Positions 22,634 to 43,479 of a stretch of DNA of 45,591 nucleotides are shown piece after piece. The DNA lies in the NCBI GenBank assembly GCA_964405305.1, contig CAYONL010000001.1, positions 6,167 to 51,757 on the forward strand. Reading direction: 5' to 3'. Made by a program: the position numbers and the translations under genes. The notes under the pieces are model-generated. The model saw only the letters and a list, made by a program, of their open reading frames with translations. It did not search any database and was not told the DNA's origin. Numbering within the stretch: the stretch's first letter is position 1; the number at the start of each line of letters is the position of its first letter. Origin of the DNA: an uncultured Oscillospiraceae bacterium. GTDB lineage: Bacteria; Bacillota; Clostridia; Oscillospirales; Ruminococcaceae.

Positions 22634-22643
22634 TGCTTCTTTG

Positions 22644-22676
22644 GGCCCGATGCCTTACCATTCGGGCCACTCCTCC
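22644..22676 (-). promoter_or_regulatory. Strong SD separated from the sheath ATG by a hairpin; alternatively it drives a 20-codon out-of-frame uORF (22599-22661)
   Basis: The minus strand reads AAAGGAGGAG-U-[GGCCCGA AUGGUAAGGCA UCGGGCC]-CAAAGAAGCA-AUG(sheath). No good SD lies next to the sheath ATG. GGAGGAG sits 8 nt before an ATG (22661) opening MVRHRAQRSNGRIFISWRLC*, which overlaps the sheath start. Confidence 0.4.
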
Positions 22677-22737
22677 TTTTCCTGTAAGTAGTGATTTGGG
22701 TTTCTTATTAAGTTTGCCGCGGGAGCGATCAATGTCA

Positions 22738-23485: not shown

Positions 23486-24070
23486 TTATCTCTGATCAAG
23501 CTGCTCGACGGACGTCTCCGTCGCCACCACGCGCGAGAAAGGAAGCACGCGCCTGCTGGAAAGCAAGACTGGTGAGACCGAAAAATACACCCCCACCTGA
23601 TATGGCACCGAAAGACTTGACCAGATCTTTGTTTTGTCCTCAAAGCTGAGATTGAGGAATGTTACGCCGGCATCCTCCTCATCCGCGGGTTTGTAAGAGT
23701 GTGCGGCGGTCACATCAATAATCGGCTCGTCGGAAAGAGCCTGCAATGCGCGCCCGAGTATGCGCTGCTCCGCCTCCGCACCGGCTGCTATCTGCGCCCG
23801 GCTGTTGAGAAAGAGCATATAATTCAGGGTCAGCGGCTTGGGCGGGAAGGTTCGGACGTTGTCCGTGCCCCTTGTCTGCTGCGAAGTCCTGTACTCGTTC
23901 AGATCCCTGATGTCGTAAAGAAAAAGCCCCAGCTGGAAATCGCCGTTTTTATCGCTGGGCGACGCAAGCTGTATGGATTCCGGCGACTGCATTGCCTCCG
24001 GACAAAGGGCGTCGCGCAGTTTTTTCAGCAGGCATTCGCTCATATCCGCAATTATCGAAAACTCTGACAA
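23486..24070 (-). CDS. DUF4255-type protein (Afp16/Pvc16 N-terminal, tail cap/terminator class)
   Basis: 194 aa. TTG start with GGGGGAGGAG upstream. IADMSECLLKKLRDAL...IQLASPSDKNGDFQLGLFLYDIRDLNEYR matches the DUF4255 pattern as I remember it (short leader, '...LGLFLYDI.en' segment). This family is a hallmark of eCIS loci. Confidence 0.75.
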   Translation of the reverse strand: MSEFSIIADMSECLLKKLRDALCPEAMQSPESIQLASPSDKNGDFQLGLFLYDIRDLNEYRTSQQTRGTDNVRTFPPKPLTLNYMLFLNSRAQIAAGAEAEQRILGRALQALSDEPIIDVTAAHSYKPADEEDAGVTFLNLSFEDKTKIWSSLSVPYQVGVYFSVSPVLLSSRRVLPFSRVVATETSVEQLDQR

Positions 24071-24082
24071 AAGCTCCTCCCC

Positions 24083-26053
24083 CTATCCTTCAATTACGTA
24101 GTACATAAGCTGTTTTTCATCGTCGCCGAACTGGTAGCAATAAAGATAAGTCATATCGTCCACCGAATACGCCTTGCGAACTATGAGTCCCGCGTAGTTT
24201 ATGCCGCTGACCTCCACAATAAGGCGCATCTGGGAATTGGTTTCAAACACTATGTTGGAAAACGCCGTGGGCTTGCGGTTGCGGATAAAACCTATCGCCA
24301 CGCAGTCGCCCAAAGAAGGCGGGTCGTTGTTCTCGTACTCGTTGGCGTTCTCCAGCGGAACAGGCGCGTCGCCGTTGAATACGATAACGGAGCTGACCTG
24401 CACCTTGGTTTTATCCAGATCCTTCTCCGCCTGCCAGACGCCCGTGTCCACCTCATAATACAGAGTATAGGTCGTCTCGATAAAGCTCGGCGTGGTGCTG
24501 GGCGCTGTGTCGGCCGAGGAGGAGGAGGACGATCCCTCCGCCACCGCAGACCCTGACGAAGCCTGCCCCACCGAGGAGGACGACGACTGGCCGGATTGCG
24601 ACGATGTGGCTCCGGATGCCGGCGCTGACGATGCGGACGAGGATGAACTCGGAGCGTTGGAGCCCGCGTCCGTCACCTCCCACGCACAGTTTTCCGCGAA
24701 CAGCTCCGGCAGCCTTGCGCCCAGCTGATGTATCGTCTCGCTTCCCGCCGCCGCCGCGAAATCCGGTATGCCGGTTCCGCCGATAATTATGGGCGAGGAG
24801 CCGGACGACGCGCTACTCTGCTGGGACGAACTTTGCGACTGGGAGGAACTTTGCGACTGTGAGGACGAGCTTGATGAACCGTCGCCCAAAACCGCGCCGC
24901 TTTGCGAGGACGGAGGAGACACCACCGTGCCATCGCCCGTTGTCACAGAGCCATCCGGGAAGAAGAAGAAGCTGTTCCCGCCGCCCGTCTGTGCCGTAGT
25001 GGTGTTCTGCTGCTCATAGAGCTTGACCGCGCAGTTTACCGTAAGCGCGCACCCGGCCTGCTCATACACGAACACGCAGTCGGAGGCGGTGTAATAGATT
25101 ATCGGCGTCTCCGTAAACGCCGCGCCTATGTCCTCCAGCGTCGCATGCATCAGCGAGCGGTAGTTTATCGTTCCGCCGTACATGGCGCCGGTATAAAGCA
25201 GCTTGCCAGATTCGCTGTAAAGCGAGCCGGTGCCCTGGGCCGCGCCCTCGAAAAACTCTCCGATATATTTGGCCACGCCGTTTTTGTAGTAACAGGTCCC
25301 GGCGCCGTGGTAGCGGCCCTTCATGAACGCGCCCTCGTAGGTCAGCAGGCCGTCCGTGTCGTAGGTCTGGCCCGCGCCCTCGTAAAGTCCGTTCAGGAAC
25401 CCGCCGGTGTAGACCAGCTTTCCGTCCTCGTTGTAGAGCCTGCCCTCGCCGTCATAAAGCCCTTTTAAGAAGCCGCCCTCGTACTTGATCTTGCCCGACG
25501 CCGGGTAATACTGTATCCCGGAGCCGCTGTACTCATTGTTCAGGAACCCGCCGATGTATACCATGCGCCCCTGTCTGTCGTACAGAGTGCCGGTGCCGGT
25601 GGCCACGCCCTTTACCACGTCGCCGGTGTAAACCACCTTTTTGTCGGCCGATTTTATATTCGCCACGCCCTCGAAATCCTTGAGAGCCATGTCGTTATAC
25701 ATGTATTCCACATTTGTGACCACCTGCTCCGTCGTCTCCGGCACCTTTGGTATGGCCGGCATATACATTGTAAACAGGATGAAGATTCCGGCGCAGATGA
25801 TCAGCACAACGGTCAGGAACAGCTTTTTGTATACGTAGCGTTTCCCGATCTTGTAATAGTCCTTCCAGGATTGGGGTTTCAGCGTGATTAAGGACTTTAC
25901 CTTTTTGGTAACCGGGCTTATGAGCTTCGCCGTTATCACGTTGAAGTTCAGCGCACGGCCTATCTTTACGATAAGCAGCCTGAACGGCGACGTGATTGCC
26001 GTTATAAGCCGTTTGAACGCCGAACCCAGCAGTTTGAACACCTGGCTCACCAC
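24083..26053 (-). CDS. Bitopic membrane protein with MORN repeats, two poly-Ser tracts and a C-terminal globular domain
   Basis: 656 aa. Lys/Arg-rich N-terminus of about 77 aa, TM helix LFLTVVLIICAGIFILFTMY, then 6-7 MORN-like repeats of about 24 aa. The GTG at 26053 lies inside the SD GGAGG, so the GTG at 26041 is a plausible alternative start. Confidence 0.75.
   Translation of the reverse strand: MVSQVFKLLGSAFKRLITAITSPFRLLIVKIGRALNFNVITAKLISPVTKKVKSLITLKPQSWKDYYKIGKRYVYKKLFLTVVLIICAGIFILFTMYMPAIPKVPETTEQVVTNVEYMYNDMALKDFEGVANIKSADKKVVYTGDVVKGVATGTGTLYDRQGRMVYIGGFLNNEYSGSGIQYYPASGKIKYEGGFLKGLYDGEGRLYNEDGKLVYTGGFLNGLYEGAGQTYDTDGLLTYEGAFMKGRYHGAGTCYYKNGVAKYIGEFFEGAAQGTGSLYSESGKLLYTGAMYGGTINYRSLMHATLEDIGAAFTETPIIYYTASDCVFVYEQAGCALTVNCAVKLYEQQNTTTAQTGGGNSFFFFPDGSVTTGDGTVVSPPSSQSGAVLGDGSSSSSSQSQSSSQSQSSSQQSSASSGSSPIIIGGTGIPDFAAAAGSETIHQLGARLPELFAENCAWEVTDAGSNAPSSSSSASSAPASGATSSQSGQSSSSSVGQASSGSAVAEGSSSSSSADTAPSTTPSFIETTYTLYYEVDTGVWQAEKDLDKTKVQVSSVIVFNGDAPVPLENANEYENNDPPSLGDCVAIGFIRNRKPTAFSNIVFETNSQMRLIVEVSGINYAGLIVRKAYSVDDMTYLYCYQFGDDEKQLMYYVIEG
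24509..24880 (-). repeat. Ser-rich low-complexity linkers (coding)
   Basis: Translation gives GSSSSSSQSQSSSQSQSSSQQSSASSGSS and NAPSSSSSASSAPASGATSSQSGQSSSSSVGQASSGSAVAEGSSSSSSAD. The DNA is GAG/GAC/GCT-rich simple sequence. Confidence 0.85.
25169..25633 (-). repeat. Tandem MORN-type repeats (protein level, about 24-aa period)
   Basis: YTGDVVKGVATGTGTLY / YIGGFLNNEYSGSGIQYY / YEGGFLKGLYDGEGRLYN / YTGGFLNGLYEGAGQTYD / YEGAFMKGRYHGAGTCYY / YIGEFFEGAAQGTGSLYS / YTGAMYGG. Confidence 0.8.
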
Positions 26054-26081
26054 CTCCGATCATTTAGCGTTTGCGCCGAAG

Positions 26082-28766
26082 TCAGTCCTCCGACGGAATA
26101 TTTCGCTCGCAGGCGAACACGTAGTACCTTGCCACGTTGTCATATTGGTTCTCGCGCAGCACCACCGCGAACAGGTTCTTTGCGTCGTAATAGCGGTGCT
26201 GATGATAAAGCTCCAACGCCCGGTCAAAGGTGTCCTTCGTCTCGTTGGTGAGGCGCGTGACCTCCGGCGAGCTGCTGTCATAGAAATCGTAAAGGCCGTA
26301 CTTTTCGCTGAATATATCGCCGGGATAGCCTATGAAGCGGTTGAAGTAGTGGCCCGAATCCACCTCGCCATACGCGGCGGCGGTAACTATCAGGCGGCTT
26401 GAGAGCTGTCGGAACAGCTCCTCGTGCTCGGTTATGTAGTCAAAATCCTCCGACACCATGGTGGGCACATAGCGGTGCTCGTCGCCGCAGATGCCGTAAA
26501 ACACCTCCGCCTTATGGAGCACGAACAGCACGTCAAGGCGGTTCTGCATCATGCTTCTGGCGTTGTGCGCGTCTATGCGGGACAGGGCCGAAAGCGCTAT
26601 GGTCACGGCGTTGTCCGCTCCTGCCGGGCAGATTATTTTCAGCCTCCGCAAATTCGCGCTGTCGCTGAATATCACCGCGCCGTTTTCATCCGAAACGGAG
26701 TTTACGATGTTGAAGAAGCGGTTGGTAAGCTGCTGTGTCTGCTCCGAACCCAGGTGGTCGCTGCCCAATTTAAGACTGACGCAGAGGACGGTATACCCCG
26801 TCTCCACCGAGCTTCCGAGTTCCAGCTCCGAAAGGTTGTCTTTCCCCAGCAGGCGGAACACCTTTTGCGGTATGAAGCGGAAATATGTCTCGCTTATGCG
26901 CTGCAGGTTGTATATCTGGGCGTCTATGTCGTTGGCCATCATGTTGAACACGCGGATTATGTCGGCCAGCTCGTCTGTGGAGGTGTTTTGCAGCCGGATG
27001 GAGCGGTTGCCCTTTGCAAACTCCTCCAGCCCCTCCTTTATCTTTGACAGCGGGCTGAGCACGCGCATGAATATCAGCGTGAGCACCAGGCCGATCGCTA
27101 TGACGAATACGGCGGAGATGATGCAGTAGTTTCTGAGATACACGCCGGTGTAGCGGCTGACGTTGGAGGTCAGTATGCCCGTTTCAAACAGGTACACCGT
27201 GTCCGCGCTGGAGCCTCCTATAGGAGTTACGCAGGCCAGACGCTCTCCGTTCAGGTCGCTTATCACGCCCTTTTGCGTCGCGCCGGTGTAGGCCGCCTTC
27301 ATATAAAGGTTTATGGCGTCTATGTTCAGCGCCACGCCGAACGGATAATAACAGGGCAGATCGTTGTCCACGCCGGTATAAAGCACGCCCTTCTCGTAAT
27401 ACCCGCTGCGGGTGTATATCTGGCGGGTGTTCATCTGCTTGATAAGATACTGATACGCCTCGCCCGAATGGTCATAGGGATACTCTATCTCTTCAAAACT
27501 CTCCGTTCCGAACAGGGCCGTGAGCATGTTGCCCTCGTCCTCCACCTGCTTGGAAAAACTCTGGTCTATGGACTGGCTGTAGCTTGAGTATGAGAAGAAG
27601 CCGAACGCCACCAGCGCGACTATCAAAAGCGGCACCGCGCTGAACACCAGCTTGATGAGCAGCGTGCGGCTGTTGGCTATGAGGACCGCTATGCCCCTTA
27701 TGAGCATGAGCACGCCGAATATCGCCAGCGCCCCGCCTATGAACCAGAGCGCGAAGGAGCCTATCCTCGCTATGGCGGATTCGCGTATGCCCGTTATTAC
27801 GGCGGCCCTTCCGGCCGAGCTCATTATAAGCTCGAACCGGTCGCCCTCGGTCGATACGGCGGCGGCGATAAAGTTCTCCGGGTCCGTCATCGACATGGCC
27901 ACTATGTCCTGCGGCGAATATTGGGACAGGCCCACAAAGGGTTCCGTGCCGTTTTTAACTATGGCGGTTGAACCGTCGGCGAGCTTCAGGATGGACATGT
28001 TGCCGCTCTCCTGCTCGCCTATATAGACAGTGTCGCCGTCTATCGGCGCTATGTACATGGCGTACATCAATGTCTCCAGCGTGCGGTTGGGATAGACCTC
28101 ACGGGCCTTTTCATCCTCCGCCGCGTAAAACACCTTGCCCGAACCGCTTATGCAGGCCTCCCCCTGACCCGCGGGAACGGCGTAAGCCACGCCCTCCGCG
28201 CTGTCTATGTCGTAGACCCACTGGTTCTTCTGGGTTATGCTTTTTTTGCTGAGCACGCTGTCTATGTCGAAGGACTGGCGGTTGAGCTTTGTTCCGCGGC
28301 CGGAGTACCCGGTCAGCGTGAGCGAGCCCGAAAGCGACATCCAGCGGTAGGATACCCCGTCCTCGTTTTCCAGCGAGTGGCTCTGCACCCGCTTGAACAT
28401 CAGCCTTGACAGGTTGTAAACGTCCAGCATCTGATACTGCTCGTCGCCGCTGTAGCGGTCGCAGACGTTTTTGAGCACGTAGATATTATTGTCGCTGTCC
28501 ACCGCCATGTCGAGCACGGAGATAATATTTCCGCCCTCATACCGGGAGAAGCTGGTGCTGTTCCGTATGACTCCGTTTTCGTCGATCATGGTCAGCTTTA
28601 TCTTCCCGCCGTCGTACTCCGCCACCGCGGCGCCGCCGTTTTTGCCTATTGCGATATCCGCAATGTTTGTAACGTCGTTCGACACAAGGACGAAGTTCAT
28701 AAGTATCGAGACGCACAGGGCCGCGGTGACCGCCAGAACCAGAAGCATTTTTGTGGTATTTTTCAT
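26082..28766 (-). CDS. Four-TM sensor-like protein: two extracytoplasmic domains, HAMP, class III cyclase-like (probably degenerate) domain, helical C-terminus
   Basis: 894 aa. GGGAGGG SD. TM helices at about aa 7-28, 336-362, 369-392 and 546-568. HAMP-like SPLSKIKEGLEEFAKGNRSIRLQNTSTDELADIIRVFNMMANDIDAQ. The cyclase-like entry YFRFIPQKVFRLLGKDNLSELELGSSVETGYTVLCVSLKLGS has Ser where the F-x-D-I-x-G-F-T metal Asp is expected. Confidence 0.65.
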   Translation of the reverse strand: MKNTTKMLLVLAVTAALCVSILMNFVLVSNDVTNIADIAIGKNGGAAVAEYDGGKIKLTMIDENGVIRNSTSFSRYEGGNIISVLDMAVDSDNNIYVLKNVCDRYSGDEQYQMLDVYNLSRLMFKRVQSHSLENEDGVSYRWMSLSGSLTLTGYSGRGTKLNRQSFDIDSVLSKKSITQKNQWVYDIDSAEGVAYAVPAGQGEACISGSGKVFYAAEDEKAREVYPNRTLETLMYAMYIAPIDGDTVYIGEQESGNMSILKLADGSTAIVKNGTEPFVGLSQYSPQDIVAMSMTDPENFIAAAVSTEGDRFELIMSSAGRAAVITGIRESAIARIGSFALWFIGGALAIFGVLMLIRGIAVLIANSRTLLIKLVFSAVPLLIVALVAFGFFSYSSYSQSIDQSFSKQVEDEGNMLTALFGTESFEEIEYPYDHSGEAYQYLIKQMNTRQIYTRSGYYEKGVLYTGVDNDLPCYYPFGVALNIDAINLYMKAAYTGATQKGVISDLNGERLACVTPIGGSSADTVYLFETGILTSNVSRYTGVYLRNYCIISAVFVIAIGLVLTLIFMRVLSPLSKIKEGLEEFAKGNRSIRLQNTSTDELADIIRVFNMMANDIDAQIYNLQRISETYFRFIPQKVFRLLGKDNLSELELGSSVETGYTVLCVSLKLGSDHLGSEQTQQLTNRFFNIVNSVSDENGAVIFSDSANLRRLKIICPAGADNAVTIALSALSRIDAHNARSMMQNRLDVLFVLHKAEVFYGICGDEHRYVPTMVSEDFDYITEHEELFRQLSSRLIVTAAAYGEVDSGHYFNRFIGYPGDIFSEKYGLYDFYDSSSPEVTRLTNETKDTFDRALELYHQHRYYDAKNLFAVVLRENQYDNVARYYVFACERNIPSED

Positions 28767-28783
28767 CTGTCAGCCCTCCCGCC

Positions 28784-29680
28784 CTAAATATCTTCATCGC
28801 CGAGATATACCTCGCCGATGTTCTCCATGCCCGCGTACATGACGTTCTTCTCTATGGCCCGGCTCGCGTTCAGCCGCGCCGCCAGCTGGTAGATCAGGAA
28901 ACCCAGCGTTACGGTGATTATCGCCACCACGAAAAGCGTCATGGAGTGATCCTTTATCCACTGCCAGAGGTCCTTGCACTTTTCCCAGAAGGCCCGCCAG
29001 CCCGTAAAAAGCTCCCTCGGCTCGTCCGGCAGAGCCTTTACAAAGGTAAGGATGCCGGAAAACGAGCGAAAGTCGCGGTTTTGGGTCTTTTTATAAAGTA
29101 TTTGCAGCTCGCTGGGGTAGCTGTCGAGATCCCCGGCGTACTTTGCCTCAAATACGCGCGAGAGCAGTTCAAACACCGTCTGCCCCACGTCGTGGTAAAA
29201 CTGGGAGTTATCCAGCTCCGGGTTCCAATTTTTAAAATCAAGAAAGTAGTTGAAATACACCGAGCGGTCGCTGTTCACGTTTATGTTCCGGTCATCCATC
29301 AGCAGTATGCCTACGGAGCCGGTGATCTGCGTTTCCGCGCACGCTATGAGCAGGTTTTCGGCCATCTCCTTGCGCTGGGCAAAATTGGCGGCGTACATCT
29401 GCTCGTGGGTGGAGAGGCGGTTTTCCGGCCTGTAAAGGAACACCAGACAAAATTCCTCTCCTCTTGTGAACGAGCCTATGAAGTCGCTGTTGCTTGTAAA
29501 CAGCCCCTCGGCCCCTATAAGCTGCGCCAACTGGCGGCGGACCGGCGGAGACGTGATCGAAATAAGCGTATAGAAAACATCCGTCGTGCGGTTTTTATCC
29601 ACACAAACAATTATCTCGTTAACTTCATTGCGCATAACTGTACGCACAGCCTCGAGCTTCATGTTCAGCGCTTCAATCAA
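28784..29680 (-). CDS. C-terminally anchored membrane protein (about 245-aa cytoplasmic domain, one TM, about 30-aa tail)
   Basis: 298 aa. TM helix MTLFVVAIITVTLGFLIYQLA near the C-terminus, preceded by the Trp-rich amphipathic stretch FTGWRAFWEKCKDLWQWIK. The start is uncertain (TTG 29680 or ATG 29662). No family recognised. Confidence 0.6.
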   Translation of the reverse strand: MIEALNMKLEAVRTVMRNEVNEIIVCVDKNRTTDVFYTLISITSPPVRRQLAQLIGAEGLFTSNSDFIGSFTRGEEFCLVFLYRPENRLSTHEQMYAANFAQRKEMAENLLIACAETQITGSVGILLMDDRNINVNSDRSVYFNYFLDFKNWNPELDNSQFYHDVGQTVFELLSRVFEAKYAGDLDSYPSELQILYKKTQNRDFRSFSGILTFVKALPDEPRELFTGWRAFWEKCKDLWQWIKDHSMTLFVVAIITVTLGFLIYQLAARLNASRAIEKNVMYAGMENIGEVYLGDEDI

Positions 29681-29733
29681 GCAGTTCTACCACCCATCCG
29701 ACCGCGTTCCGTTTACCGCGCGGTTATTTTACA

Positions 29734-31551
29734 TCACTCGGTCTCTTTTTCTTTTTTCTTCTTCTGCGTAACTATGGCAAAGGCGTGAGTATAGATCGTG
29801 GGATCGGACAGCGCCTCCACCCTGATCTCATATACGCCCTCTTTGGCCGGCGCCGTATACACACCGTTGTTGTCCACTCGTCCGCCCTCGGCATCCAGCA
29901 GCTTGTAGCTGCACGCCTCCGTCGGCATGTTGATGAACACGGGCTTGATGTGCGCGGTGGCCTTGGGCTGCAGCACAAAGGTATCGGGATTTATCATTAT
30001 CATCTTCTCGCCCTCGTGCTTCGGCTTCAGCTTCTGGTTCACCTCGCCCAGACGGAAGGCGTACCAGCGTATGCGCAGGCTGATGAGATCCGTGGCTTCG
30101 TTCGGCCTGACGCCGACAACAAAGGTTCCGCGCTCCGGCAGCACCTTTACCGCCACATCCAGATTATAAAGCCGCTCCTCGTCGTCCAGCCTGTCGTCCG
30201 CGAATATGGTCGCGTCACCCAAAACTATCTCCGACGTGGTGGAGCGCTCGTCCGCCCGCAGATACTCTATGCCGATATCCACATACACCGGGCCTTTGCC
30301 GAGCCCATGCATGATCTCCTCTGAAAACAGCGGCTGGTGAGGCGCGTAACCGAGCCCCAGCGGAAAATCGAACACACCGCAGGCCGTAAGCTTCGCGTTA
30401 TCGCCGATCTCGGCCGCCGCGGGCACCTTTGCAACCGCCTCTGTCATCGCCGCGGCCTGTACCGGAAGCGCGCGCCCGGCCGCCGGATAGTAGCCCGCCA
30501 GCTGGTGCAGCATCATTAGCTGCTGGGCGTTGTAGCAGTACTGGGCGTAGGGCGACGGCGCTATGCTGTCGATTATGACGGAGTTTTTCTGCCTTATCAG
30601 GTTTATCTTCGCTATCCAAAGCCGCTCGTCATACGTGTCGCCCAGCGTCTTATCCATGGACTTGTTGTAGTAGCTGCTTATGTAATAGGAGGTGAGACCG
30701 CTTTCCACCGGACGCAGCGTCACATCAATGTTCTGCTTTACGGTGAAGTTTTCGTCGTTCTTTTGAATGGCGAAGCCCGAAACCGTCATGGTTACGGAGC
30801 CGCCCGCGCCCCATATGTAATCCTCCGGCGTGAAGAAGTTTTCAATGGCGTGGCTCTCTCCGCAGGCAAGGCGCAGATTGTTGGCCACCACGGCTATTCC
30901 CGGGCCTCCGCTCTTGCTGGTAAAGCCGGGCGCGTTCAGGTTGTAGGCAAAGGAAAACTCCCCCGTGCCCGGAGACAACCTGCTGATCACCGTTCTTACG
31001 GCTATGTCGCTGCCTCTGACCACGACCTTGGGAGAAAGCTGCGCCACCTCCACATCCGGGTCAGAATAAAGCACAGTGCGCTCAATGAACTCATCCATGG
31101 GCGAAGCGATCTTTGCGACCACGTTTTCGTCCAGCAGCATCAGCTTGAACGTCTCGCGCACTCTGTTGTGCTGAACTCCGGCGTTCTCTTCGCTCATTAC
31201 GCTGTAGACCTCGTCCACCGGCTGCTCGTCATACGCTATGCCGAGATACGCCGTGGAGGTCGAGAGCTGGCCGTACCCCTCTATGGTGGAGAGCTTGACG
31301 ACCTGGGTCTGGCCCACCACCACCTCGCGGCCGGAGGCATCGAACGCGCACCCTGCTTGCAGGATGATCGAGGCGTCGTCCGCCATGATCACCCCAAGCC
31401 CGGCCACTACACCATTCGCCCCCGTCACGCGGTTCACGAAACGGCGTTTGTCATTTATGTAGCGCTGTTCGGACTCAAAATCCTTCGCGGTCAAGAGTTT
31501 ACCGAAATAGTACCGGTTGCGCTCAAATGGGAAATATTTGCGGTTTAGCAT
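29734..31551 (-). CDS. Conserved hypothetical CIS-associated protein with a C-terminal Ig-like module
   Basis: 605 aa with no TM helix. The N-terminus FPFERNRYYFGKLLTAKDFESEQRYINDKRRFVNRVTGANGVVAGLGV resembles a motif I recall from hypothetical proteins in phage-tail-like clusters (unverified). The C-terminus YKLLDAEGGRVDNNGVYTAPAKEGVYEIRVEA looks Big/Ig-like. Confidence 0.55.
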   Translation of the reverse strand: MLNRKYFPFERNRYYFGKLLTAKDFESEQRYINDKRRFVNRVTGANGVVAGLGVIMADDASIILQAGCAFDASGREVVVGQTQVVKLSTIEGYGQLSTSTAYLGIAYDEQPVDEVYSVMSEENAGVQHNRVRETFKLMLLDENVVAKIASPMDEFIERTVLYSDPDVEVAQLSPKVVVRGSDIAVRTVISRLSPGTGEFSFAYNLNAPGFTSKSGGPGIAVVANNLRLACGESHAIENFFTPEDYIWGAGGSVTMTVSGFAIQKNDENFTVKQNIDVTLRPVESGLTSYYISSYYNKSMDKTLGDTYDERLWIAKINLIRQKNSVIIDSIAPSPYAQYCYNAQQLMMLHQLAGYYPAAGRALPVQAAAMTEAVAKVPAAAEIGDNAKLTACGVFDFPLGLGYAPHQPLFSEEIMHGLGKGPVYVDIGIEYLRADERSTTSEIVLGDATIFADDRLDDEERLYNLDVAVKVLPERGTFVVGVRPNEATDLISLRIRWYAFRLGEVNQKLKPKHEGEKMIMINPDTFVLQPKATAHIKPVFINMPTEACSYKLLDAEGGRVDNNGVYTAPAKEGVYEIRVEALSDPTIYTHAFAIVTQKKKKEKETE

Positions 31552-31608
31552 CGGCTCATCCTGCTTTCTTGTATATTATTCAGCTTTGTTCTGCACCATG
31601 TTCAGCGT

Positions 31609-34600: not shown

Positions 34601-37600
34601 TTTCCAAGGCGCTGGTAATACTCCCGGGCTTCCTCGGTGTCCTCAGTATATTTGCTCCGAACCTCGGTCGATGGCAGGCCCTTGTTGCTCTCCAGCCATT
34701 TTGCAAACGCCAGCTCCCAGTTCATCCTGAGCGCCACATCTTCCTTAGTCATCGTGTTGTTCGCCGTGGAGTAATAAATATCCGTTCCCAGATCTGACGA
34801 AATGAGCTGGATAGGAGAACCGACATCCACCGCCGTCACTCCCGAGACCTCTTTACCTCCGTAAAGCGCCGTCGGCACCTTGGCGTTATTGCGTATTTTC
34901 AGCGTGATGTTCAGTATGCCGCTGCTCACCTTATCCGTGTCGGAGCCGGTGATGTACATGGAGTAGGTCACACTGCTCCCCGCCGCGCCGCTGACTGTTA
35001 TCACCTGCGGAGCGACACGCTCATACACCGTCTTTAACGATTTGTTTATTATCTTCGGCGTTTCCTGCGCGTACGACATGGTTATGCCGGATACGGAGGT
35101 GATATTTCCCAGGGCATACTTTATCTGAGGCAGCAGGTACTTATCATTGCCTTCGAAGATCACGCGCTTTTCGGTCTGGCTTTCAGTCCCGGCCTTAATC
35201 ACTATACTGCCGTCTTCCGCCACGCTCTCCGCTATTCCATAGCCGATAACGCTCTTCATATTGCTTGGTATGTCTGCCTCGCTTACGGCCAGCGCGATCA
35301 GCTGTCCATCTTCAATGGTGTCGCCGTCTTTAAGCTTCGCGCCGATCTGCACATCTCCGTTATCGTCATAGTAGGCGATATGCACCTCCGGCGTCTGGTA
35401 AGCCGTCTTGAACTTGATGGCGGCCGACGTCACCGCGGAGTTTTTATACGCCGTGCTTGTCGGCACAAAAATCGCCCTCAGCTCCACCGCCGAGCCCGAT
35501 GTGCGCCCCGTCACATAATCTATTTCGGTTCCCTTTACATACTCTATACCCGAGGTCTTAGGATCGCTGCCGTTGAGCGTATACAGTATCTTGCCCTCCG
35601 GCTGTTTCCCGTCCATGCTCTCGTGGTACAGGGTAATCTTTGAGTCTCCAAACGTGTAATACAGGCCGGCATCAAAATCCACTCCGTCCAGCTTAACTTT
35701 TATGGCCGCGGGCGTCGCCCTGTCCGAGTTTTTATACGTGACATAGGTGGAGTAGCTTACAGGCCGCGCGCCTTTTGTATCCCGCGCCATAGCCGTTACG
35801 GTCATGGTGCTCTTATCCGACGGGAACGGGATGGCTTTGCCATCATACTCCGCAATCACCACCTCGGCGGTAGATGCCTTTACCGAACCGTCGGAATTTA
35901 ACGGTTCATAGGAGGTATCCGAATAAGAGACAGAGTACCATATCTCCACATTCGTACTGTCCTCCGGGTAGCTTATCGTTACGCCGCCGTCGTTGTCTAT
36001 CTTTTCACCCGCCGCGTTAGGAGATATGACGGGCTTTGCCAGCCTTGTTCCTATCGTGGCCGAGCCGGAACCTATTCCTTCAGTCGATGGCTCGGATGTG
36101 ATCATCCAGGCGTAAACCTCTACCGAGGAGCCGGGCGCCAAAACTCCCGTGTCTCCAATGCGCTCTTTCAGCGTGTTCACGCTAAAGGACAGAACCTCTG
36201 TCGCCGCGTCCCATGTCTCCCAGCCCGTGCCCGCTCCAGTATTCAGCGTGTTGGGGTTGCCAGGGGTCGTGACCGGTTTGGTGTAATTGTTGTTTTCTCC
36301 GCTGTTTATCGACCAATAGGTGTCTGTGGTAACATTTTTACCGCCTGTGGCGTCGTTCTTCTCGCCAACGAAGTCCGTTATCGTATCGCCGGCCAGGCTT
36401 CCCTCCTCGGCAAATTTTCTGAGGTCAAAAACCAAAACGTTGCTGGCCGAAAGCCCACTGTTTTTCGGGTCCTCGGCGTCCACCCAAACGGCCAGATAGC
36501 GCGTCGCGTCATTTGCTCCCACGCCGTCCCACGAAATCCCGTTTGTGGTATCATACACGGCTTTGCCGGACAGCGCGCTCAGTTCCTCCGTCGGCTTAAC
36601 TGTATAGCTGCCTGCGCTTCCGTTCATCAGCGCCAAATCGTTGCCGAACACATAGTAAATGAACGCCGGCTCGTTGACGCCGCCCACCACATTTGAATCG
36701 AAGCCGTTCAGGTTCTCCGGCAGATCCACCTTCACATTCATAAATGTGACGTTGTCGCCCTCGCTCCACCACGGATGCGCGCTGGCCTTCATGGTCGCTT
36801 TGTCCGGGGCCGCTTTTTTCACCGCGCTCCCACGGCTGTCGGCAAGGGACAGCGGCGTCACCTGGAACCCATCCAGACCGTAATCGTCCACAGGGTTCCC
36901 CAGATTGCTTATGACATAATTATCATCCGCCGCCGTCCCCGTGGTCACAGAAAGGTTCACAACAAAGATCTTGGCCGCCGTCGGATAGTTCACCGGCGTC
37001 GCGGTTATTGTGTAGCTGCCCACCGTTACGGTGGGCGCCACCGTCACACTGGCGGTCGAGGTCGTGCTCTTTGTCCCGGAGGAGGGTGAGCTTTGGCTGA
37101 CCGTCAGCCAGCCGCCGCTCGGCGACACTGTCCAGTTCCACGCGGTGCTGTCCACCGTTCCGGCACTCAGCGTAAACGTGTCGCTCGCATACACCGTTCC
37201 GTTATAGGCAAGCGTACCGCTGCTTCCATTGTGAGTATACGAGGTGCAGATCACCTCATTGGCCGCCGTGCCCACGATCACTGTAAATGTCTGGGCCAGC
37301 GACACCTGATTGCCCGGCTGAACTGTTATTATATATGTGCCCGGTACGGTTATGACGTCGCCCATCGTGAAAGAAACCGTGCTGCTTTGGGCGGCGACCG
37401 CGCTTGTCACGCCGTTTACCAGATTTCCGCTGGCAACATTATTCGGGTTCTTTATCGTCCAGTTCCAGACCGCCGTGCCCTGCGACAGCGAAGCTTTCAG
37501 TGTGAAAGTGTCACCAGGATATATCTGTTCCCCACTGTCGAGCAAGTTGGAGGCGCTGCCGTTGTATTTTGTACAGGACAGCGTACTCGTCACGCTTGTT

Positions 37601-40600
37601 CTCTTAATATTCACCCTGAAGGTGTACACATTGTAGGCTCCGGTCACCTGCACCGGCGAAAAACCGGAAGGCGTGGCGGTAACGGTGTAATAGTCTCCGT
37701 CCGCCGCCGTCTGTGAGCTTGAAAGCGTAAGGGTCAGCGTTCCCCTATTCCTGCTCAACGTTATTTTAGTGTCGTCGCTGACCTCTTTGCCATCCTTATC
37801 TTTCACGTTCCAATTCCATGTGGACGCCGACGCGCCGCCGTCCAACGACGCGGTAAGGGTCATGCTGGTCGATCCGCTGGCCGGCGCCGTCATGTCGCAG
37901 CTTGCGTCATACTCCGCGCCGCTCACCATTGTGTAATTGCTGTAGCCACTGCCGCCCGGAGTCAGTGTCTGGTTGGGCAGAACGTATATATTTGACGACG
38001 TTTTTGGCAGCGTAACTCCGTTTACCGTGGCGCCCGTGGAAAACGTCAGCACACCCGCCGTAGAAACAAAGGTGGTAAGCGACCCAGACGATACGTCAAC
38101 GCTGAAATTTATCGCGGCTGTAGTCGGCGGATCGCTTGACGACAGCTCCACGCCATTGCGGGCCACGGACCACAAAAACGTCTCCTCGGTGTAATGGCCT
38201 GAATTTTCGCTGTATGACACCTTGGCCGTTATAGCCTTATTCGCAAACTTGGTCACGTCGCCAACGGGAACGACCACCTTGTCGTCCGTCTCATCCATAT
38301 TGTTTTCTATGGTAAACCCTGTTGGCGTTTTATAGATTCTAACGTCGCACTGTCCGACCACATCTCCGTCGTCTTTGCCGCTATTCCCATTGCCGTCGTA
38401 ATAGGCATAGACCGTAACGGTTCCCGCCTCATGCCCGGTCACCGCAGCGGCACGGCCTTCTTCATTGGCGCCCACCGTCAGTTTTCCGCTGCTGTCCACC
38501 GTGGTGCCGCTATCGGTATTGCCCTCCACGCCCCATAAAAGCTTCGGAGTGCCGACGCCTGTGACCGTGGCCGTAAAGGTTCCGGTCGTGCCGGCCATAA
38601 AATATTTTACCGCTGTCGGCGCGGCAACGGTTATGGAGGAAACGCTCGGCGCGACCTCCACCAGACCGATGCTTTTTATAGTGCTGCTGCCGTAGGTGCC
38701 GGTTATTGTGACCGGCTTTCCAACGTCGCCGGCGCTCACGGTCAGTCTGCCGCTATTGGTGCTGGAAAAAACAGAGCTTGCTGTGGTATTGTTTCTCGTT
38801 CCGACTTCCCAATTTATCGTTACGTTGTTCAGCAAATGTATATTTTTGCCGTTTACCATCGCCAATGCCTGGTAAGTGCTTCCCGCCTTGAGCGTTATTT
38901 CCGTAACGTTGTTCAGCCCGACGCCGTTGTCAAGATATGTAACGTTCCCGTTGCCGTCGACCTTTATTTCGTATAAATACAGGTCAATGCTCTCGACCTC
39001 GGGAATTCCCTCTCCCTTGAGCACGCCCTTCGCGGAGGCAAACTGGCCCTGTGTTATATATTTAACGAAATAATACAGCCTCTCATTTATAAAGGCTTTA
39101 TCACGGGTTATGGAAACCGTCGTGTCGCTGTCGGTATATTTTACAGCCACCTCCGGCGGCGGTGTTTTAAGCCATTTAAGCGTAAGCGCACCCGAATCGT
39201 CCAGCGCCCACACGCCGTTATCATTTATGCCGCTATACGCGCTGCCTGTGCTGGCCACCACTTTGTCCGGAACATAGCTTGCCGACACGACAGTGCCCGC
39301 GCTAGTAACCGCAAAAATGTTAGAATTTGACCCTGCCAATGAAATGGAGAAGCCATCATGCTCCAGCGTCTGCATCAGCACCGAGTCAAGTGCCGCTGTC
39401 GTGCAGTAGTTACTATTATCGTAATCCTCCAGCAGATTCCCTATGGCGGAGGCCTGCGCCACGCTCTTGCTCGCCACAGAATTAGATCCTCCGACGCTGC
39501 TTCCGTCCTGATCCCAGCCGCCGCTGTTAAAAAGGTATACCCTGTACGTTCTTCCGGCCACCATACAGTTGGAGACCGTGTTGGACGCCGCCGCATTGCC
39601 GTTTCCTATTATGCCACCCAACCGGAAGGTCCCTTTAAAAGCCGTTGGCACGGACATTGTAAATTGGTTCCAGCCGCTTTGGATGGGACTCATGCTCATG
39701 GAGCCCATGGAGTAGCAGTCTTTTATAGTTGTTGACGACGCGGCAAAGCCCAGTATGCCGCCCTGATTTATGCTTCCGCCCATTTCAAAGGAAGCACCCG
39801 GAGTAAGCTCCGTATTTATATTTATAAAATCCATGCTGGTGTCTATTGCAACGTTTGTGTACACCTCGGATATTGTCGCGCTGCCCGAATACCCGACAAG
39901 ACCGATGTTAAAATACGGGTGGGCGACCCCTCTGTTATATTTTCCAAAATAGGATACATAGAGACCCGGCGACGTCAGGCCGGAGACCTGCACCTTTTCA
40001 AGCTTTGCGCCGTTCCACATGGAGCCCACCAGCGCGCCAATATCTATGGAGTAAGGTATTTTATCACTGCTTATGTCTTTTATGGACACCTTGTTTGTGC
40101 CCTTCAGCGAAACACGCAGATTGGTGACAACGCCTGAATCCAGCACCGCGAAAAGGCCGCCGTACGAATACTTGTTATCCGGGTTTTTCATTCCATGAGT
40201 CATGCTTACCAGATTGCTGTAATCGTCGCTCGACCGCGTATTTAAAGTTACCGTGTAGCGCCCGCCGTCCAGCGTGCCGCAGAAATAAGATATGGCTCCG
40301 CTGCCCCACTCGGCGATAACATCCGCCGCGAGGGTAAAGGTAACGCCTCTGCAGCCATCGTCGCGGTAATTTAACGTGGCTGGGTTTGTCAGAACCCCAT
40401 CATTGTTCACATAAATACTGTTTTTCGTGACCGCTTCTCTATTATTGTTTACATAATCCACGAAAGCTCTCCAGCCCACGCTATCATATATCGTGCCGCC
40501 GGAAATACGGTTGCCCCCATCAAGCGTAACGACGAGCCCTCTCATTTCCTCCGCTCCCGCCGGCTGCGTCAGCAAAACCGTTGGCACCACTACAGCCGCT

Positions 40601-40647
40601 ATGAGCAGCACAAAAGCAAGGACAGTCAGCACAGTACGTTTTTTCAT
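31609..40647 (-). CDS. Giant (3012 aa) surface protein: signal/anchor N-terminus, GLUG-type region, Ig-like modules, about 10 chitobiase-C/Fn3-like modules, C-terminal TM anchor and Pro-rich cytoplasmic tail
   Basis: The start overlaps the AAA+ ATPase stop (ATGA), with AAAGGAG 8 nt upstream. N-terminus MKKRTVLTVLAFVLLIAAVVVPTVLL. GLUG-like segments GGLFAVLDSG, IGALVGSMWNG, GGILGFAASS and GGIIGNGNAA. A Big_2-like module and three W-N-W modules. C-terminus WIWVAGVAGAGVVGGGVAMLVLG followed by KKKKDKKGPGKPAAQAGPKPAAPQSQSPSAPPPQEK. No LPXTG motif. Confidence 0.85.
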   Translation of the reverse strand: MKKRTVLTVLAFVLLIAAVVVPTVLLTQPAGAEEMRGLVVTLDGGNRISGGTIYDSVGWRAFVDYVNNNREAVTKNSIYVNNDGVLTNPATLNYRDDGCRGVTFTLAADVIAEWGSGAISYFCGTLDGGRYTVTLNTRSSDDYSNLVSMTHGMKNPDNKYSYGGLFAVLDSGVVTNLRVSLKGTNKVSIKDISSDKIPYSIDIGALVGSMWNGAKLEKVQVSGLTSPGLYVSYFGKYNRGVAHPYFNIGLVGYSGSATISEVYTNVAIDTSMDFININTELTPGASFEMGGSINQGGILGFAASSTTIKDCYSMGSMSMSPIQSGWNQFTMSVPTAFKGTFRLGGIIGNGNAAASNTVSNCMVAGRTYRVYLFNSGGWDQDGSSVGGSNSVASKSVAQASAIGNLLEDYDNSNYCTTAALDSVLMQTLEHDGFSISLAGSNSNIFAVTSAGTVVSASYVPDKVVASTGSAYSGINDNGVWALDDSGALTLKWLKTPPPEVAVKYTDSDTTVSITRDKAFINERLYYFVKYITQGQFASAKGVLKGEGIPEVESIDLYLYEIKVDGNGNVTYLDNGVGLNNVTEITLKAGSTYQALAMVNGKNIHLLNNVTINWEVGTRNNTTASSVFSSTNSGRLTVSAGDVGKPVTITGTYGSSTIKSIGLVEVAPSVSSITVAAPTAVKYFMAGTTGTFTATVTGVGTPKLLWGVEGNTDSGTTVDSSGKLTVGANEEGRAAAVTGHEAGTVTVYAYYDGNGNSGKDDGDVVGQCDVRIYKTPTGFTIENNMDETDDKVVVPVGDVTKFANKAITAKVSYSENSGHYTEETFLWSVARNGVELSSSDPPTTAAINFSVDVSSGSLTTFVSTAGVLTFSTGATVNGVTLPKTSSNIYVLPNQTLTPGGSGYSNYTMVSGAEYDASCDMTAPASGSTSMTLTASLDGGASASTWNWNVKDKDGKEVSDDTKITLSRNRGTLTLTLSSSQTAADGDYYTVTATPSGFSPVQVTGAYNVYTFRVNIKRTSVTSTLSCTKYNGSASNLLDSGEQIYPGDTFTLKASLSQGTAVWNWTIKNPNNVASGNLVNGVTSAVAAQSSTVSFTMGDVITVPGTYIITVQPGNQVSLAQTFTVIVGTAANEVICTSYTHNGSSGTLAYNGTVYASDTFTLSAGTVDSTAWNWTVSPSGGWLTVSQSSPSSGTKSTTSTASVTVAPTVTVGSYTITATPVNYPTAAKIFVVNLSVTTGTAADDNYVISNLGNPVDDYGLDGFQVTPLSLADSRGSAVKKAAPDKATMKASAHPWWSEGDNVTFMNVKVDLPENLNGFDSNVVGGVNEPAFIYYVFGNDLALMNGSAGSYTVKPTEELSALSGKAVYDTTNGISWDGVGANDATRYLAVWVDAEDPKNSGLSASNVLVFDLRKFAEEGSLAGDTITDFVGEKNDATGGKNVTTDTYWSINSGENNNYTKPVTTPGNPNTLNTGAGTGWETWDAATEVLSFSVNTLKERIGDTGVLAPGSSVEVYAWMITSEPSTEGIGSGSATIGTRLAKPVISPNAAGEKIDNDGGVTISYPEDSTNVEIWYSVSYSDTSYEPLNSDGSVKASTAEVVIAEYDGKAIPFPSDKSTMTVTAMARDTKGARPVSYSTYVTYKNSDRATPAAIKVKLDGVDFDAGLYYTFGDSKITLYHESMDGKQPEGKILYTLNGSDPKTSGIEYVKGTEIDYVTGRTSGSAVELRAIFVPTSTAYKNSAVTSAAIKFKTAYQTPEVHIAYYDDNGDVQIGAKLKDGDTIEDGQLIALAVSEADIPSNMKSVIGYGIAESVAEDGSIVIKAGTESQTEKRVIFEGNDKYLLPQIKYALGNITSVSGITMSYAQETPKIINKSLKTVYERVAPQVITVSGAAGSSVTYSMYITGSDTDKVSSGILNITLKIRNNAKVPTALYGGKEVSGVTAVDVGSPIQLISSDLGTDIYYSTANNTMTKEDVALRMNWELAFAKWLESNKGLPSTEVRSKYTEDTEEAREYYQRLGNEEPVVQKYTQTLQVQQNSQNYLTISAMAVSSADADGDPNTIGNLGPSAISTFQFTINEVKQVEAVTAEPATTTNNPTEVKRGELISLASGTGNTTIYYTLDGSDPLPAERINYDKALSSVQKFGKDMLLSSETASLNKYLESGDLGKLSNSELIAKYVTGANAANYGPATKEYVSTEQISMAPKDGESSLSIRAMAVSTSGMMKNSAISRFDYDLMKAEKVTQQSTPVTATDDIITLAPESSIRLRTKTLNADIYYTTNGTVPDPLAYNAASEADREKMETKLYDFDTGLTMPGDIKTFYIVSAVAYVPNGEYAASELATFTYQLPAPVQAVYATPVAGSVVKGTEVTLKTTTEGATIYYETGKASNLKANKSQTFDEGTPIKIDANMTIYTMAVKDGVKSEVTSFKYTVAETLPTPTPSIPTGSVVGKGTSIKLTSKEGATIVYTTDGSDPTKADNKALMYGDTVLLNGDYGAAVSVQAYATKTGYTPSEIMTATYTIATNNGYLTVSPATGSTIANGTVVNMTTTLTGSTIHYTTDGTDPTASSPSGNSVAISGAPGATVNLKVSVFDSSGKPGTTTLVTYKIQEKASAPSSSVESGAYFMEGATIKLTAAEGLIYYTTDGSDPTTSSSLYGDIAKLGNDVTAYPDITLRDSSVIKAIAVVSGKANSDIAQFVYTKAGQVSAPTFSVTSGEIDQNSAISLETATEGASIYYSTKGTDPSAGNLDSLTLYTGPITVTRPVTIKAIAIKDQFFNDMVNTATYTVKVPEPVDEGEGAGDIPAGTNSDRLTSRRTYSDTDTGPSFKDVVISNADFGMLVSAKTGVIPKDCELVITEINPGTQDVSAASSVNGEYGIAQLYEIKLMRNGEEIQPEGEIEIGMPIDSDYQNATLEIVQINSNGTAKLLDARRAGGMAYVMTDSLYRYAITMPKDQIKKDNTWIWVAGVAGAGVVGGGVAMLVLGKKKKDKKGPGKPAAQAGPKPAAPQSQSPSAPPPQEK
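32308..34893 (-). repeat. Eight consecutive chitobiase/beta-hexosaminidase-C-like (Fn3-like) modules, protein level
   Basis: Recurrent signature G-x-x-I-Y-Y-T-x-D-G-S/T-D-P ... I-x-A-x-A: GTDIYYSTANN, NTTIYYTLDGSDP, NADIYYTTNGTVP, GATIYYETGK, GATIVYTTDGSDP, GSTIHYTTDGTDP, GLIYYTTDGSDP, GASIYYSTKGTDP. The first three carry helical inserts. Two or three more diverged copies lie upstream. Confidence 0.65.
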
Positions 40648-43305: not shown

Positions 43306-43340
43306 CCCCCTCCCACATGTTTTCATTACTCTACGTTACC

Positions 43341-43369
43341 AATATAATGTTTATCAATTTATTTTCCAA
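43341..43369 (-). promoter_or_regulatory. Candidate promoter of the CIS operon
   Basis: On the minus strand, TTGGAA (43369-43364), a 17-nt spacer, then TATATT (43346-43341), in an AT-rich gap. The predicted leader to ATG 43305 is about 30 nt. It lies immediately downstream of the LuxR terminator. Confidence 0.4.
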
Positions 43370-43392
43370 CTATCCTAAAGTATAGGTTTTCC

Positions 43393-43435
43393 AAAAACAC
43401 AAAGCGGCGCGGCGCTTTACCCGGCGCCGCGCCGC
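43393..43435 (-). terminator. Strong intrinsic terminator after the LuxR-type regulator gene
   Basis: The minus-strand RNA forms a perfect 12-bp GC stem, GCGGCGCGGCGC-CGGGUAAA-GCGCCGCGCCGC, followed by UUUGUGUUUUU. Confidence 0.85.
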
Positions 43436-43479
43436 AATATCCAGTTCCAACGCCGTTTTTTTACGGCGTCCGCCCGTCT

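Follow-up and report, generated by a model that had tools for sequence, protein, structure and literature searches.

What is a block of five genes, four of them encoding predicted membrane proteins, doing in the middle of the locus of a contractile injection system (CIS)? The question is raised by a 45,591-nt stretch of DNA from an uncultured Oscillospiraceae bacterium (GenBank contig CAYONL010000001.1), which in its entirety is referred to here as the window. Its central part is a CIS locus of the antifeeding prophage/Photorhabdus virulence cassette (Afp/PVC) type, in which the sheath, tube, gp25-like, VgrG-like spike, baseplate-J-type wedge, Pvc16 cap and AAA+ ATPase genes are all identified above Pfam or NCBIfam cutoffs. 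The five genes, which we call the block, occupy positions 24083–40647, between the ATPase and the cap. The original prediction, made by a model from the letters of the window, saw in the block the mark of a membrane-tethered or signal-gated CIS. We find that the block is a lineage-defining accessory module of the CIS in gut and anaerobe Clostridia (Oscillospiraceae and Lachnospiraceae), and that it probably serves in docking the particle at the membrane and in triggering it.

Conservation of the block with the CIS

A sheath search with one genome per species returned 80 loci from Oscillospiraceae, Lachnospiraceae and their relatives, several of them in cultured strains, with sheaths 54–83% identical. 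The loci were fetched with 10-kb flanks and a census of their genes was taken by tblastn. Among all loci fetched, the sheath is at least 62% identical in 57, and 51 of these carry genes for the Cis13-like (605 aa in the window), 298-aa, HAMP (894 aa) and MORN (656 aa) proteins upstream of the cap and sheath, in the same order as in the window. The remaining six are cut at a contig end; where the flank suffices, all 51 loci have the block. Carriers include 43 species-representative genomes. The giant gene at the head of the block also has counterparts, with one or two giant Fn3_assoc/CHB_HEX_C genes upstream of the HAMP and Cis13-like homologues in all relatives. The ATPase abuts the giant gene wherever the flank reaches that far (the junction is kept in L084–86 and L092/93), and the Pvc16 cap follows the MORN gene in all block-bearing loci.

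The block has also diverged in step with the particle. Identity of the block proteins correlates with identity of the sheath across loci with a Spearman rho of 0.80–0.87, compared with 0.72–0.90 for core CIS genes. Members of the HAMP family that are 36, 38, 43, 48 and 86% identical to the window protein were sampled on long contigs, and every one of them sits in this CIS context, as does a Cis13-like homologue with 57% identity. The original prediction had named closely related CIS loci lacking the block, with the block standing elsewhere beside unrelated genes, as the pattern that would mark a passenger cassette. What the census returned was a block alongside the sheath in every closely related locus with enough flank and, in the contexts sampled, no block genes away from a CIS. 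A recent horizontal insertion was considered separately and rejected, given the uniform composition of the block and its co-divergence with the sheath.

Two loci have a changed layout. In one (L051) the Cis13-like, 298-like and HAMP-like genes lie on the other strand and diverge from the sheath. In the other (L069) a 923-aa gene with a Tail_P2_I-like end is followed by Cis13-like, 376-aa single-transmembrane and HAMP-like genes; the 376-aa protein has no detectable similarity to the 298-aa protein. The Cis13-like and HAMP-like genes, with a small single-transmembrane gene between them, thus remain neighbours of one another and of the CIS despite the altered layout. Directly upstream of the L051 sheath (16–9842) there are genes for a 1000-aa polytopic membrane protein with about 10 or more hydrophobic segments, a response-regulator-like protein and a 166-aa protein.

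A sister clade, with sheaths 58–60% identical, shows a different arrangement. Here the ATPase, a 311-aa gene, the cap, a 255-aa gene and the sheath are adjacent (L054 at 5823–10001, and L050, L052, L053, L055–57, L059 and L063), and the membrane module was not found within 10 kb. The 311-aa protein has a DUF4157-like HExxH N-terminus, which we recognised by eye, and DUF4157 is a typical cargo marker of extracellular CISs (eCISs; PMC8213781). The adjacency of ATPase, DUF4157-like gene, cap and sheath in the sister clade indicates that the block occupies a variable accessory slot. A scan of viral contigs with the ATPase returned no relatives. PADLOC defence models, run on all block proteins but the giant one, matched none of the four, and neither PHROGs nor PADLOC gave a functional assignment for the block proteins.

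Organisation of the block

All large open reading frames (ORFs) of the window are on the minus strand, and their coordinates and lengths bear out the prediction of a five-gene insert between the AAA+ ATPase and the cap and sheath genes. The junctions are as tight as had been claimed. The ATPase stop and the giant gene start overlap by 4 nt (ATGA), and the gaps that follow the giant gene measure 57, 53, 17, 28 and 12 nt. The GC fraction within the block (0.52–0.59) matches that of the remaining operon. Promoter-like sites number 10 against 11.2 expected and terminator-like sites 30 against 21.3 ± 5.7 expected, both at chance level, and the scan places no minus-strand terminator-like site in the intergenic gaps of the block, in agreement with the earlier reading that it holds no terminator or convincing promoter. 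The best promoter-like cluster (43328–43369) lies between the regulator and the 286-aa gene, upstream of the latter.

A Kyte-Doolittle scan finds membrane segments in four of the five proteins, as predicted, and no convincing one in the 605-aa protein. The topologies given below were derived from hydropathy and the positive-inside rule. The individual architectures that had been proposed for the five proteins were likewise recovered, with one correction of substance: none of the five had been thought to belong to the canonical CIS parts list, and this is wrong for the 605-aa protein, which has an N-terminal CIS13_fam domain.

A probable Cis13/Cis19-like adaptor

Residues 9–141 of the 605-aa protein match positions 4–136 of the 392-position NCBIfam model NF053767 (CIS13_fam) with an E-value of 3e-22, so that a homologous CIS13 N-terminal domain is present. 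A profile of the 605-aa family also finds, weakly (E 0.0027; query residues 18–84), residues 18–87 of All3314 in PDB entry 7B5H. All3314 is Cis19, a trimeric crown protein on the baseplate of the thylakoid-anchored CIS (tCIS) (PMC8894136). By homology, the 605-aa protein carries the N-terminal domain of the Cis13 family and tCIS Cis19, and counts as a canonical CIS part.

The AlphaFold2 (AF2) model of the protein (mean pLDDT 78.6) consists of an N-terminal helix and beta domain followed by several beta-sandwiches, with a disordered linker at 355–385 and, as had been noted before, an Ig-like module at the end (a beta-sandwich at 517–594). Conservation is highest in the N-terminal domain (0.73) and the C-terminal Ig domain (0.75). 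The sole segment above the transmembrane threshold, 48–66 (score 1.62), falls in the predicted beta domain, and the scan detects no C-terminal transmembrane helix of the tCIS type. We read the 605-aa protein as a fibre-like adaptor that attaches to the baseplate and has no membrane anchor itself. A physical link between the module and the particle is plausible because this protein has the N-terminal domain of the Cis13 family and tCIS Cis19.

A tail-anchored pseudokinase-like protein

The 298-aa protein is C-terminally anchored, with a cytoplasmic kinase-like domain (about residues 1–245), a transmembrane segment (TM) at 249–267 and an extracellular tail of about 30 aa. Its AF2 model (pLDDT 84.9, pTM 0.70) shows a domain of two lobes and, after it, a long TM helix. 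Foldseek returned 1130 PDB matches with E ≤ 1e-3 for this model, and the best 50 listed are all kinase or pseudokinase domains (TM-scores 0.36–0.59), so the model has the kinase fold. An alignment of 36 sequences shows neither an invariant Lys nor a Gly-rich loop (GxGxxG). The position of HRD appears to be taken by an invariant Leu125 and a near-invariant Leu126, mapped by eye, and Asn and 'DF' motifs seem to be retained. In the same alignment the extracellular tail is nearly invariant ('Y.G...IGEVYLGDE'). On the strength of the model, we take the protein to be tail-anchored with a kinase-like (pseudokinase) fold that lacks the catalytic motifs.

In 1.84 billion proteins the family forms 282 representative clusters; most of the full-length ones listed are about 270–305 aa long, and there are fragments besides. 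It has no home in Pfam, and PDB sequence and profile searches with it gave nothing significant. A relaxed Pfam scan matched YukC (PF10140) weakly in one of 36 members (E 0.0016) and in none of the others, and Pkinase weakly in two of 49 distant relatives (E 0.036). Filing the family under YukC or Pkinase was rejected on account of these scattered weak matches. One 3202-aa protein (P0275) has 14 separate matches to the family profile and no informative Pfam domains, and may be a tandem array or an assembly artefact. We take EssB/YukC of the type VIIb secretion system to be an analogue, with the same order of a cytoplasmic kinase-like domain without catalytic motifs and one TM, again in a Gram-positive envelope machine. 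EssB has a sizeable extracellular domain, whereas the 298-aa protein exposes only some 30 residues.

A HAMP receptor with a degenerate cyclase domain

Hydropathy of the 894-aa protein shows a TM at 10–28, a double hydrophobic stretch at 332–387 and a TM at 548–566, and this supports the four-TM architecture with HAMP and cyclase-like domains that had been described. The predicted order is TM1, a first ectodomain (ECD1, 31–331), a TM2–TM3 hairpin (332–391), a second ectodomain (ECD2, 392–547) and TM4, then HAMP (567–614), a cyclase-transducer element, a cyclase homology domain and a C-terminal TPR-like hairpin. HAMP (PF00672) scores 31.8 bits against a cutoff of 25, lies directly after TM 548–566 and is found in 38 of 38 family members. 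BLASTP aligns residues 465–888 with Leptospiraceae cyclases that contain HAMP and PF00211 (P0058–P0060; E 7e-27, 23% identity). The two are collinear from the end of the sensor domain through the TM, HAMP, a 'YYRFIP' transducer element and the cyclase domain to the TPR-like hairpin. Compared with HAMP-coupled class III cyclases, the 894-aa protein has an additional N-terminal TM, ECD1 and TM hairpin.

Class III cyclases use two metal-binding Asp residues, a substrate Lys, and an Asn and an Arg that act on the transition state. All of these are replaced across the 894-aa family. In an alignment with P0058–61, FSDIR has become CVSLK, IGDAIMA has become NLRRLKI, DKY has become DSA and AVNLASRLE has become FDYITEHEE; none of these sites is conserved in the family, and PF00211 is reached by 0 of 38 members. 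The 894-aa protein is accordingly best described as a predicted pseudo-cyclase receptor with four TMs and a catalytically dead cyclase domain. With the cyclase dead, any signal would be conformational or pass by protein–protein contact, not by cyclic nucleotide. An active cAMP or cGMP second-messenger output was a separate candidate and was rejected on the loss of the catalytic residues.

ECD2 contains 26 invariant residues, the most of any part of the protein. A relaxed Pfam scan of the family gave only HAMP and, for ECD1 in six of 38 members, weak hints of a beta-propeller. The family comprises about 57 clusters, all uncharacterised, and PDB sequence and profile searches with it found nothing significant.

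The MORN protein and the giant surface protein

The 656-aa protein is bitopic, with a conserved basic cytoplasmic N-terminus (1–77) and a TM at 78–96; the N-in orientation is predicted by the positive-inside rule. Its MORN repeats (PF02493) are detected above the gathering score (E 2.8e-8; 33.6 bits against a cutoff of 22.5), and PHROG 7324 spans residues 166–291. The conservation profile was taken over 49 distinct homologues, and homologues carry faint MORN matches.

The 3012-aa protein has the features of a type I surface protein, namely an N-terminal signal-like segment (6–24) and a C-terminal TM (2957–2975). Pfam identifies Fn3_assoc (E 7e-50) and CHB_HEX_C_1 (E 1e-48) repeats, and the protein has Ig-like repeats as well. 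The distal part varies among relatives and only the C-terminal 800–1400 aa or so are conserved. This conserved end includes Fn3_assoc/CHB_HEX_C_1 repeats and a membrane-proximal 'RRSGG.AY' domain, and the succession of 'RRSGG.AY', TM and basic KKKK/RRRR tail is common to most of about 45 loci.

Relation to characterised CISs

The closest solved relative of the sheath is that of the membrane-anchored, type VI secretion system (T6SS)-like CIS of Halogeometricum borinquense (9EZM, E 6.6e-111), followed by the cytoplasmic CIS of Streptomyces (8BKY/8BL4, E about 1e-98). At a far greater distance (E 1e-41 to 1e-48) come the sheaths of tCIS (E 3e-47), Afp, PVC and AlgoCIS. The 964-aa baseplate protein has a sole PDB match, the Streptomyces baseplate-J protein in 9GTP (E 1.3e-19). 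Sheath and baseplate comparisons therefore group the Clostridial CIS, at the level of sequence, with the haloarchaeal (clade IIa) and Streptomyces systems. The haloarchaeal CIS has itself been assigned to clade IIa, with Bacillota as the nearest Cis11 relatives (PMC11566945). In haloarchaea the T6SS-like mode correlates with a conserved locus-encoded membrane protein, and Cis12/Cis13 are at the membrane contact (PMC11566945). Membrane association and firing of the Streptomyces particle both require the membrane protein CisA, which is predicted to bind Cis11 and has been proposed to act as a sensor (PMC12237407). The closest solved relatives, as these papers describe them, thus act from within the cell and rely on locus-encoded membrane proteins.

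The Clostridial system differs from each of its relatives in how it would meet the membrane. The haloarchaeal CIS has the closest solved sheath and, like the Clostridial one, two baseplate-J-type genes. The haloarchaeal candidate anchor is a single 6-TM protein with a cytoplasmic domain of about 150 aa, whereas the Clostridial locus encodes four membrane proteins (pseudokinase, HAMP/pseudo-cyclase, MORN and giant adhesin), and the envelope is an S-layer in the haloarchaeon and peptidoglycan in the Clostridial host. With the Streptomyces coelicolor CIS (9GTP/9GTS) it has in common a Gram-positive host, a related sheath, a baseplate-J protein and a locus-encoded membrane protein. CisA is a single bitopic protein whose cytoplasmic N-terminus is disordered and whose periplasmic domain is solute-binding-like (PMC12237407), and all five block proteins differ from this described architecture. 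The S. coelicolor CIS also has no tail-fibre-like protein (PMC12237407), in contrast to the Cis13/Cis19-like adaptor and folded cytoplasmic pseudo-enzyme domains of the Clostridial system. The Anabaena tCIS (7B5H; PMC8894136) has baseplate-attached trimeric Cis13/Cis19 proteins that form the membrane connection or crown; its Cis13 has a TM helix of its own, whereas the Clostridial adaptor has none and separate membrane proteins adjoin it.

Two consecutive baseplate-J-type genes (TIGR02243; 8587–13623, 964 and 698 aa) recall the haloarchaeal cis11 pair and the two Cis11 copies per Streptomyces wedge.

The remainder of the locus

Coordinates of the main features are given in Table 1. Transcription runs from the MalT-TPR/LuxR regulator through the 286-aa gene, the AAA+ ATPase and the five block genes to the Pvc16 cap and a 227-aa gene. 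These are followed by the sheath, a tube gene, a 124-aa zinc-ribbon gene, a second tube gene, a 798-aa tape-measure-like gene, CIS_tube (Cis7) and a 372-aa tail protein, then by the VgrG-OB spike, gp25, the 964-aa and 698-aa baseplate-J-type genes and a Tail_P2_I-like 372-aa gene. Two dynamin-like genes and RnfC, RnfD and RnfG complete the order.

Table 1. Features of the CIS locus and its surroundings (window coordinates)
Feature	Position	Strand	Basis
Giant type I surface protein, 3012 aa	31609–40647	-	ORF list, Pfam, hydropathy
Cis13/Cis19-like fibre-like adaptor, putatively cytoplasmic, 605 aa	29734–31551	-	NCBIfam, PDB match, AF2
Tail-anchored kinase-like protein, 298 aa	28784–29680	-	AF2 and Foldseek, hydropathy
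Four-TM HAMP receptor-like protein, 894 aa	26082–28766	-	Pfam, BLASTP, hydropathy
Bitopic (N-in) MORN protein, 656 aa	24083–26053	-	Pfam, hydropathy
CIS AAA+ ATPase (Cis15-type)	40644–42503	-	PF00004, E 6e-29
Pvc16/Cis16 cap (tail terminator)	23486–24070	-	Pvc16_N PF14065, E 9e-24; 12 nt downstream of block
Core CIS genes	7450–23421	-	Pfam, NCBIfam and PHROGs matches
MalT-TPR/LuxR (GerE) regulator	43480–44979	-	Pfam TPR_MalT and GerE
Conserved protein with no assigned family, 286 aa	between regulator and ATPase, within 42466–44979	-	overlaps ATPase start
Bacterial dynamin-like pair, 622 and 704 aa	3367–7336	-	Dynamin_N, E 1.8e-14 and 1.7e-16

Regulators of the GerE type are known to occur beside eCIS loci (PMC8213781), and a homologue of the 286-aa protein (56% identity) precedes the ATPase in L084. 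The 124-aa protein (19953–20327) has no family assignment and ends in a zinc-ribbon-like Cys motif (CPECGHTF). It is 52–86% identical in all lineages, those without the block included, ranks among the best conserved proteins of the locus and is probably an unnamed core component. In 58 related loci a DUF4280 (PAAR-like) gene stands between the 227-aa-like gene and the sheath (for example L092, 15799–16182); the sub-lineage of the window seems to lack a spike tip gene at that slot. Pfam scans of the window proteins revealed no holin or endolysin.

The dynamin-like pair begins 113 nt downstream of the last baseplate gene. A metagenome scan with that baseplate gene returned three loci, and a dynamin pair adjoins the CIS in all three (L087 at 11261–15194, L088 at 11216–14753 and L089 at 17356–20863). 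Two of the three pairs have the opposite orientation to the CIS, which implies that the linkage of dynamin and CIS survives inversion. A literature search found no published link of dynamin-like proteins to a CIS. The pair is possibly associated with the CIS, and a role in resealing or remodelling the membrane after firing is possible.

The CIS region ends at the Rnf genes. The listed RnfC (1828–3192) and RnfD (860–2032) ORFs overlap by 205 nt. The RnfD start is probably listed too far upstream, because its Pfam match begins at residue 76, and the first 21 residues of the listed RnfC, which precede an internal Met, may be spurious.

A model for docking and triggering, and its rivals

We propose, at a probability of roughly 55%, that the block specifies a membrane-docking and trigger complex for a cell-anchored CIS. 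The particle would assemble in the cytoplasm with the 605-aa protein seated on the periphery of its baseplate through the N-terminal domain. The conserved C-terminal Ig-type domains of this protein would reach the 298-aa protein, the HAMP/dead-cyclase/TPR-like end of the 894-aa protein and the 77-aa N-terminal tail of the 656-aa protein, and these contacts would dock the baseplate against the cytoplasmic membrane from within. On the other side, ECD2, the extracellular tail of the 298-aa protein, the MORN, Ser-linker and C-terminal domains of the 656-aa protein and the variable tip of the giant adhesin would sense or bind a target beyond the membrane, for instance another cell nearby or the wall. 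HAMP-type conformational signalling would then pass the event to the docking platform and license assembly or firing, which might be directed outward, in the manner of a T6SS, or at the cell's own membrane, in the manner of CisA. A scaffold role is suggested for the two pseudo-enzymes because the kinase fold is without its Lys and Gly loop and the cyclase domain without its metal and substrate residues. The cytoplasmic parts are conserved in all three smaller membrane proteins. Of the original proposal of a tethered and/or signal-gated CIS adapted to a thick Gram-positive envelope, the tie to the CIS has gained from the strict conservation of the block and from the Cis13-like link; tethering, gating and adaptation to such a wall are conjectures.

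Several observations weigh against this model. The CIS13_fam match of the 605-aa protein falls short of the equivalog cutoff (79.4 against 370 bits) and covers the N-terminal third of the profile only, and the match to All3314 is weak. The protein has neither a TM nor an amphipathic anchor of its own. Foldseek searches with its model in the PDB and BFVD returned generic beta-sandwiches only (Ig-like, macroglobulin or BIG2), with TM-scores below 0.2; the comparison of whole chains is thus uninformative on a CIS role. A conserved cytoplasmic docking motif was sought in the tail of the giant protein and not found, the tail sequence being unconserved. We recognised neither an effector nor a toxin in the window. 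The DUF4280 gene has no tblastn match anywhere in the window, where its slot would be 22633–22738, nor in the nearest relative (L094/L095). The relatives are mostly contigs of metagenome-assembled genomes, and the census was taken on these contigs with their 10-kb flanks; in the group without the block (sheath 54–60% identical) it covered the region upstream of the sheath and not further downstream. The contacts between the particle and the block proteins are ones that we infer, and the tube would have to cross a thick layer of peptidoglycan.

One rival is that the module acts as CisA does in Streptomyces. A stress-sensing membrane complex would recruit free cytoplasmic particles to the producer's own membrane, and their firing would bring about regulated cell death or lysis instead of injecting a neighbour. 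The sheath and baseplate-J protein are indeed close to Streptomyces CIS structures, in which system a membrane protein proposed to sense a signal is required for firing; the 894-aa protein retains a full receptor architecture, no effector was recognised, and the PAAR gene is absent in the sub-lineage. We nevertheless consider this reading unlikely. A giant adhesin-like protein with a variable tip better fits contact with other cells, the linked dynamin pair would suggest membrane repair and survival rather than suicide, the domain architectures are not those of CisA, and the sheath is closer still to that of the haloarchaeal T6SS-like system. It is distinctly unlikely that the particle is an eCIS freed by lysis, with an unrelated though co-regulated module serving the producer's surface (as kin receptor, immunity, adhesion to a niche or partner, or sensing for the timing of production) and the 605-aa protein being an ordinary tail fibre. 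Such a particle would match the full eCIS gene set, including the AAA+ ATPase, the cap and the eCIS-typical GerE regulator, the resemblance of the 605-aa fold to multi-Ig phage tail and receptor-binding proteins, and the standard eCIS look of the sister clade with its DUF4157 gene. It would leave unexplained why the 605-aa gene stays by two membrane-protein genes when the group moves or inverts, and conserved cytoplasmic pseudo-enzyme domains make little sense in a purely surface role; in addition, the window shows no holin or endolysin and the nearest characterised relatives act from inside the cell.

A last alternative holds that the block is a surface-protein and sensor set inserted by chance and without a functional tie to the CIS. 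The ATPase–cap slot does vary between clades, and the N-terminal two-thirds of the giant protein vary as in ordinary adhesins, but a passenger would hardly be found in 51 of 51 loci, co-diverge with the sheath, never occur outside a CIS in the sampled contexts, keep its three smaller genes in rearranged loci and include a member with the domain of Cis13-family and tCIS Cis19 baseplate-associated proteins. We regard it as very improbable and clearly disfavoured. The docking and trigger model can be extended, more tentatively, to a first T6SS-like system of monoderm bacteria. The particle would here be membrane-docked through the Cis13/Cis19-like adaptor and a pseudokinase/pseudo-cyclase platform, and contact sensed by the receptor, MORN and giant-adhesin ectodomains would trigger firing outward through the wall, with dynamin resealing the membrane afterwards. 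This extension is a possibility to which we give rather less than even weight.

Significance

Bacillota CIS loci are present in databases, and to our knowledge none has been characterised. We also know of no handle on the positioning and triggering of a CIS at the Gram-positive envelope other than CisA. A literature search found no description of a Clostridial CIS with such a module, nor of this set of membrane proteins. The components are of recognisable kinds (CIS, HAMP receptor, kinase fold and MORN) and it is their combination that appears to be new. Large surveys have described eCISs as depleted from the human digestive tract (PMC8213781). At least 43 species-level genomes from gut-type Oscillospiraceae and Lachnospiraceae, cultured strains among them, harbour the lineage described here. 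Commensal Clostridia associated with the gut carry the system widely; among the carriers are human-derived isolates such as Anaerotruncus, as well as Ruthenibacterium, Lachnoclostridium, Hominiventricola and Laedolimicola.

The module offers a defined parts list with cultured carriers available, among them Anaerotruncus massiliensis AT3 (L047), Ligaoa zhengdingensis NSJ-31 (L025), Hominiventricola filiformis (L041) and Laedolimicola ammoniilytica (L033). It provides two examples of signalling enzymes that appear to have been turned into pseudo-enzyme scaffolds, and it raises the possibility that CIS firing is linked to membrane repair by dynamins. If neighbouring cells are indeed injected, the gut microbiota would possess an interbacterial weapon of a new kind.

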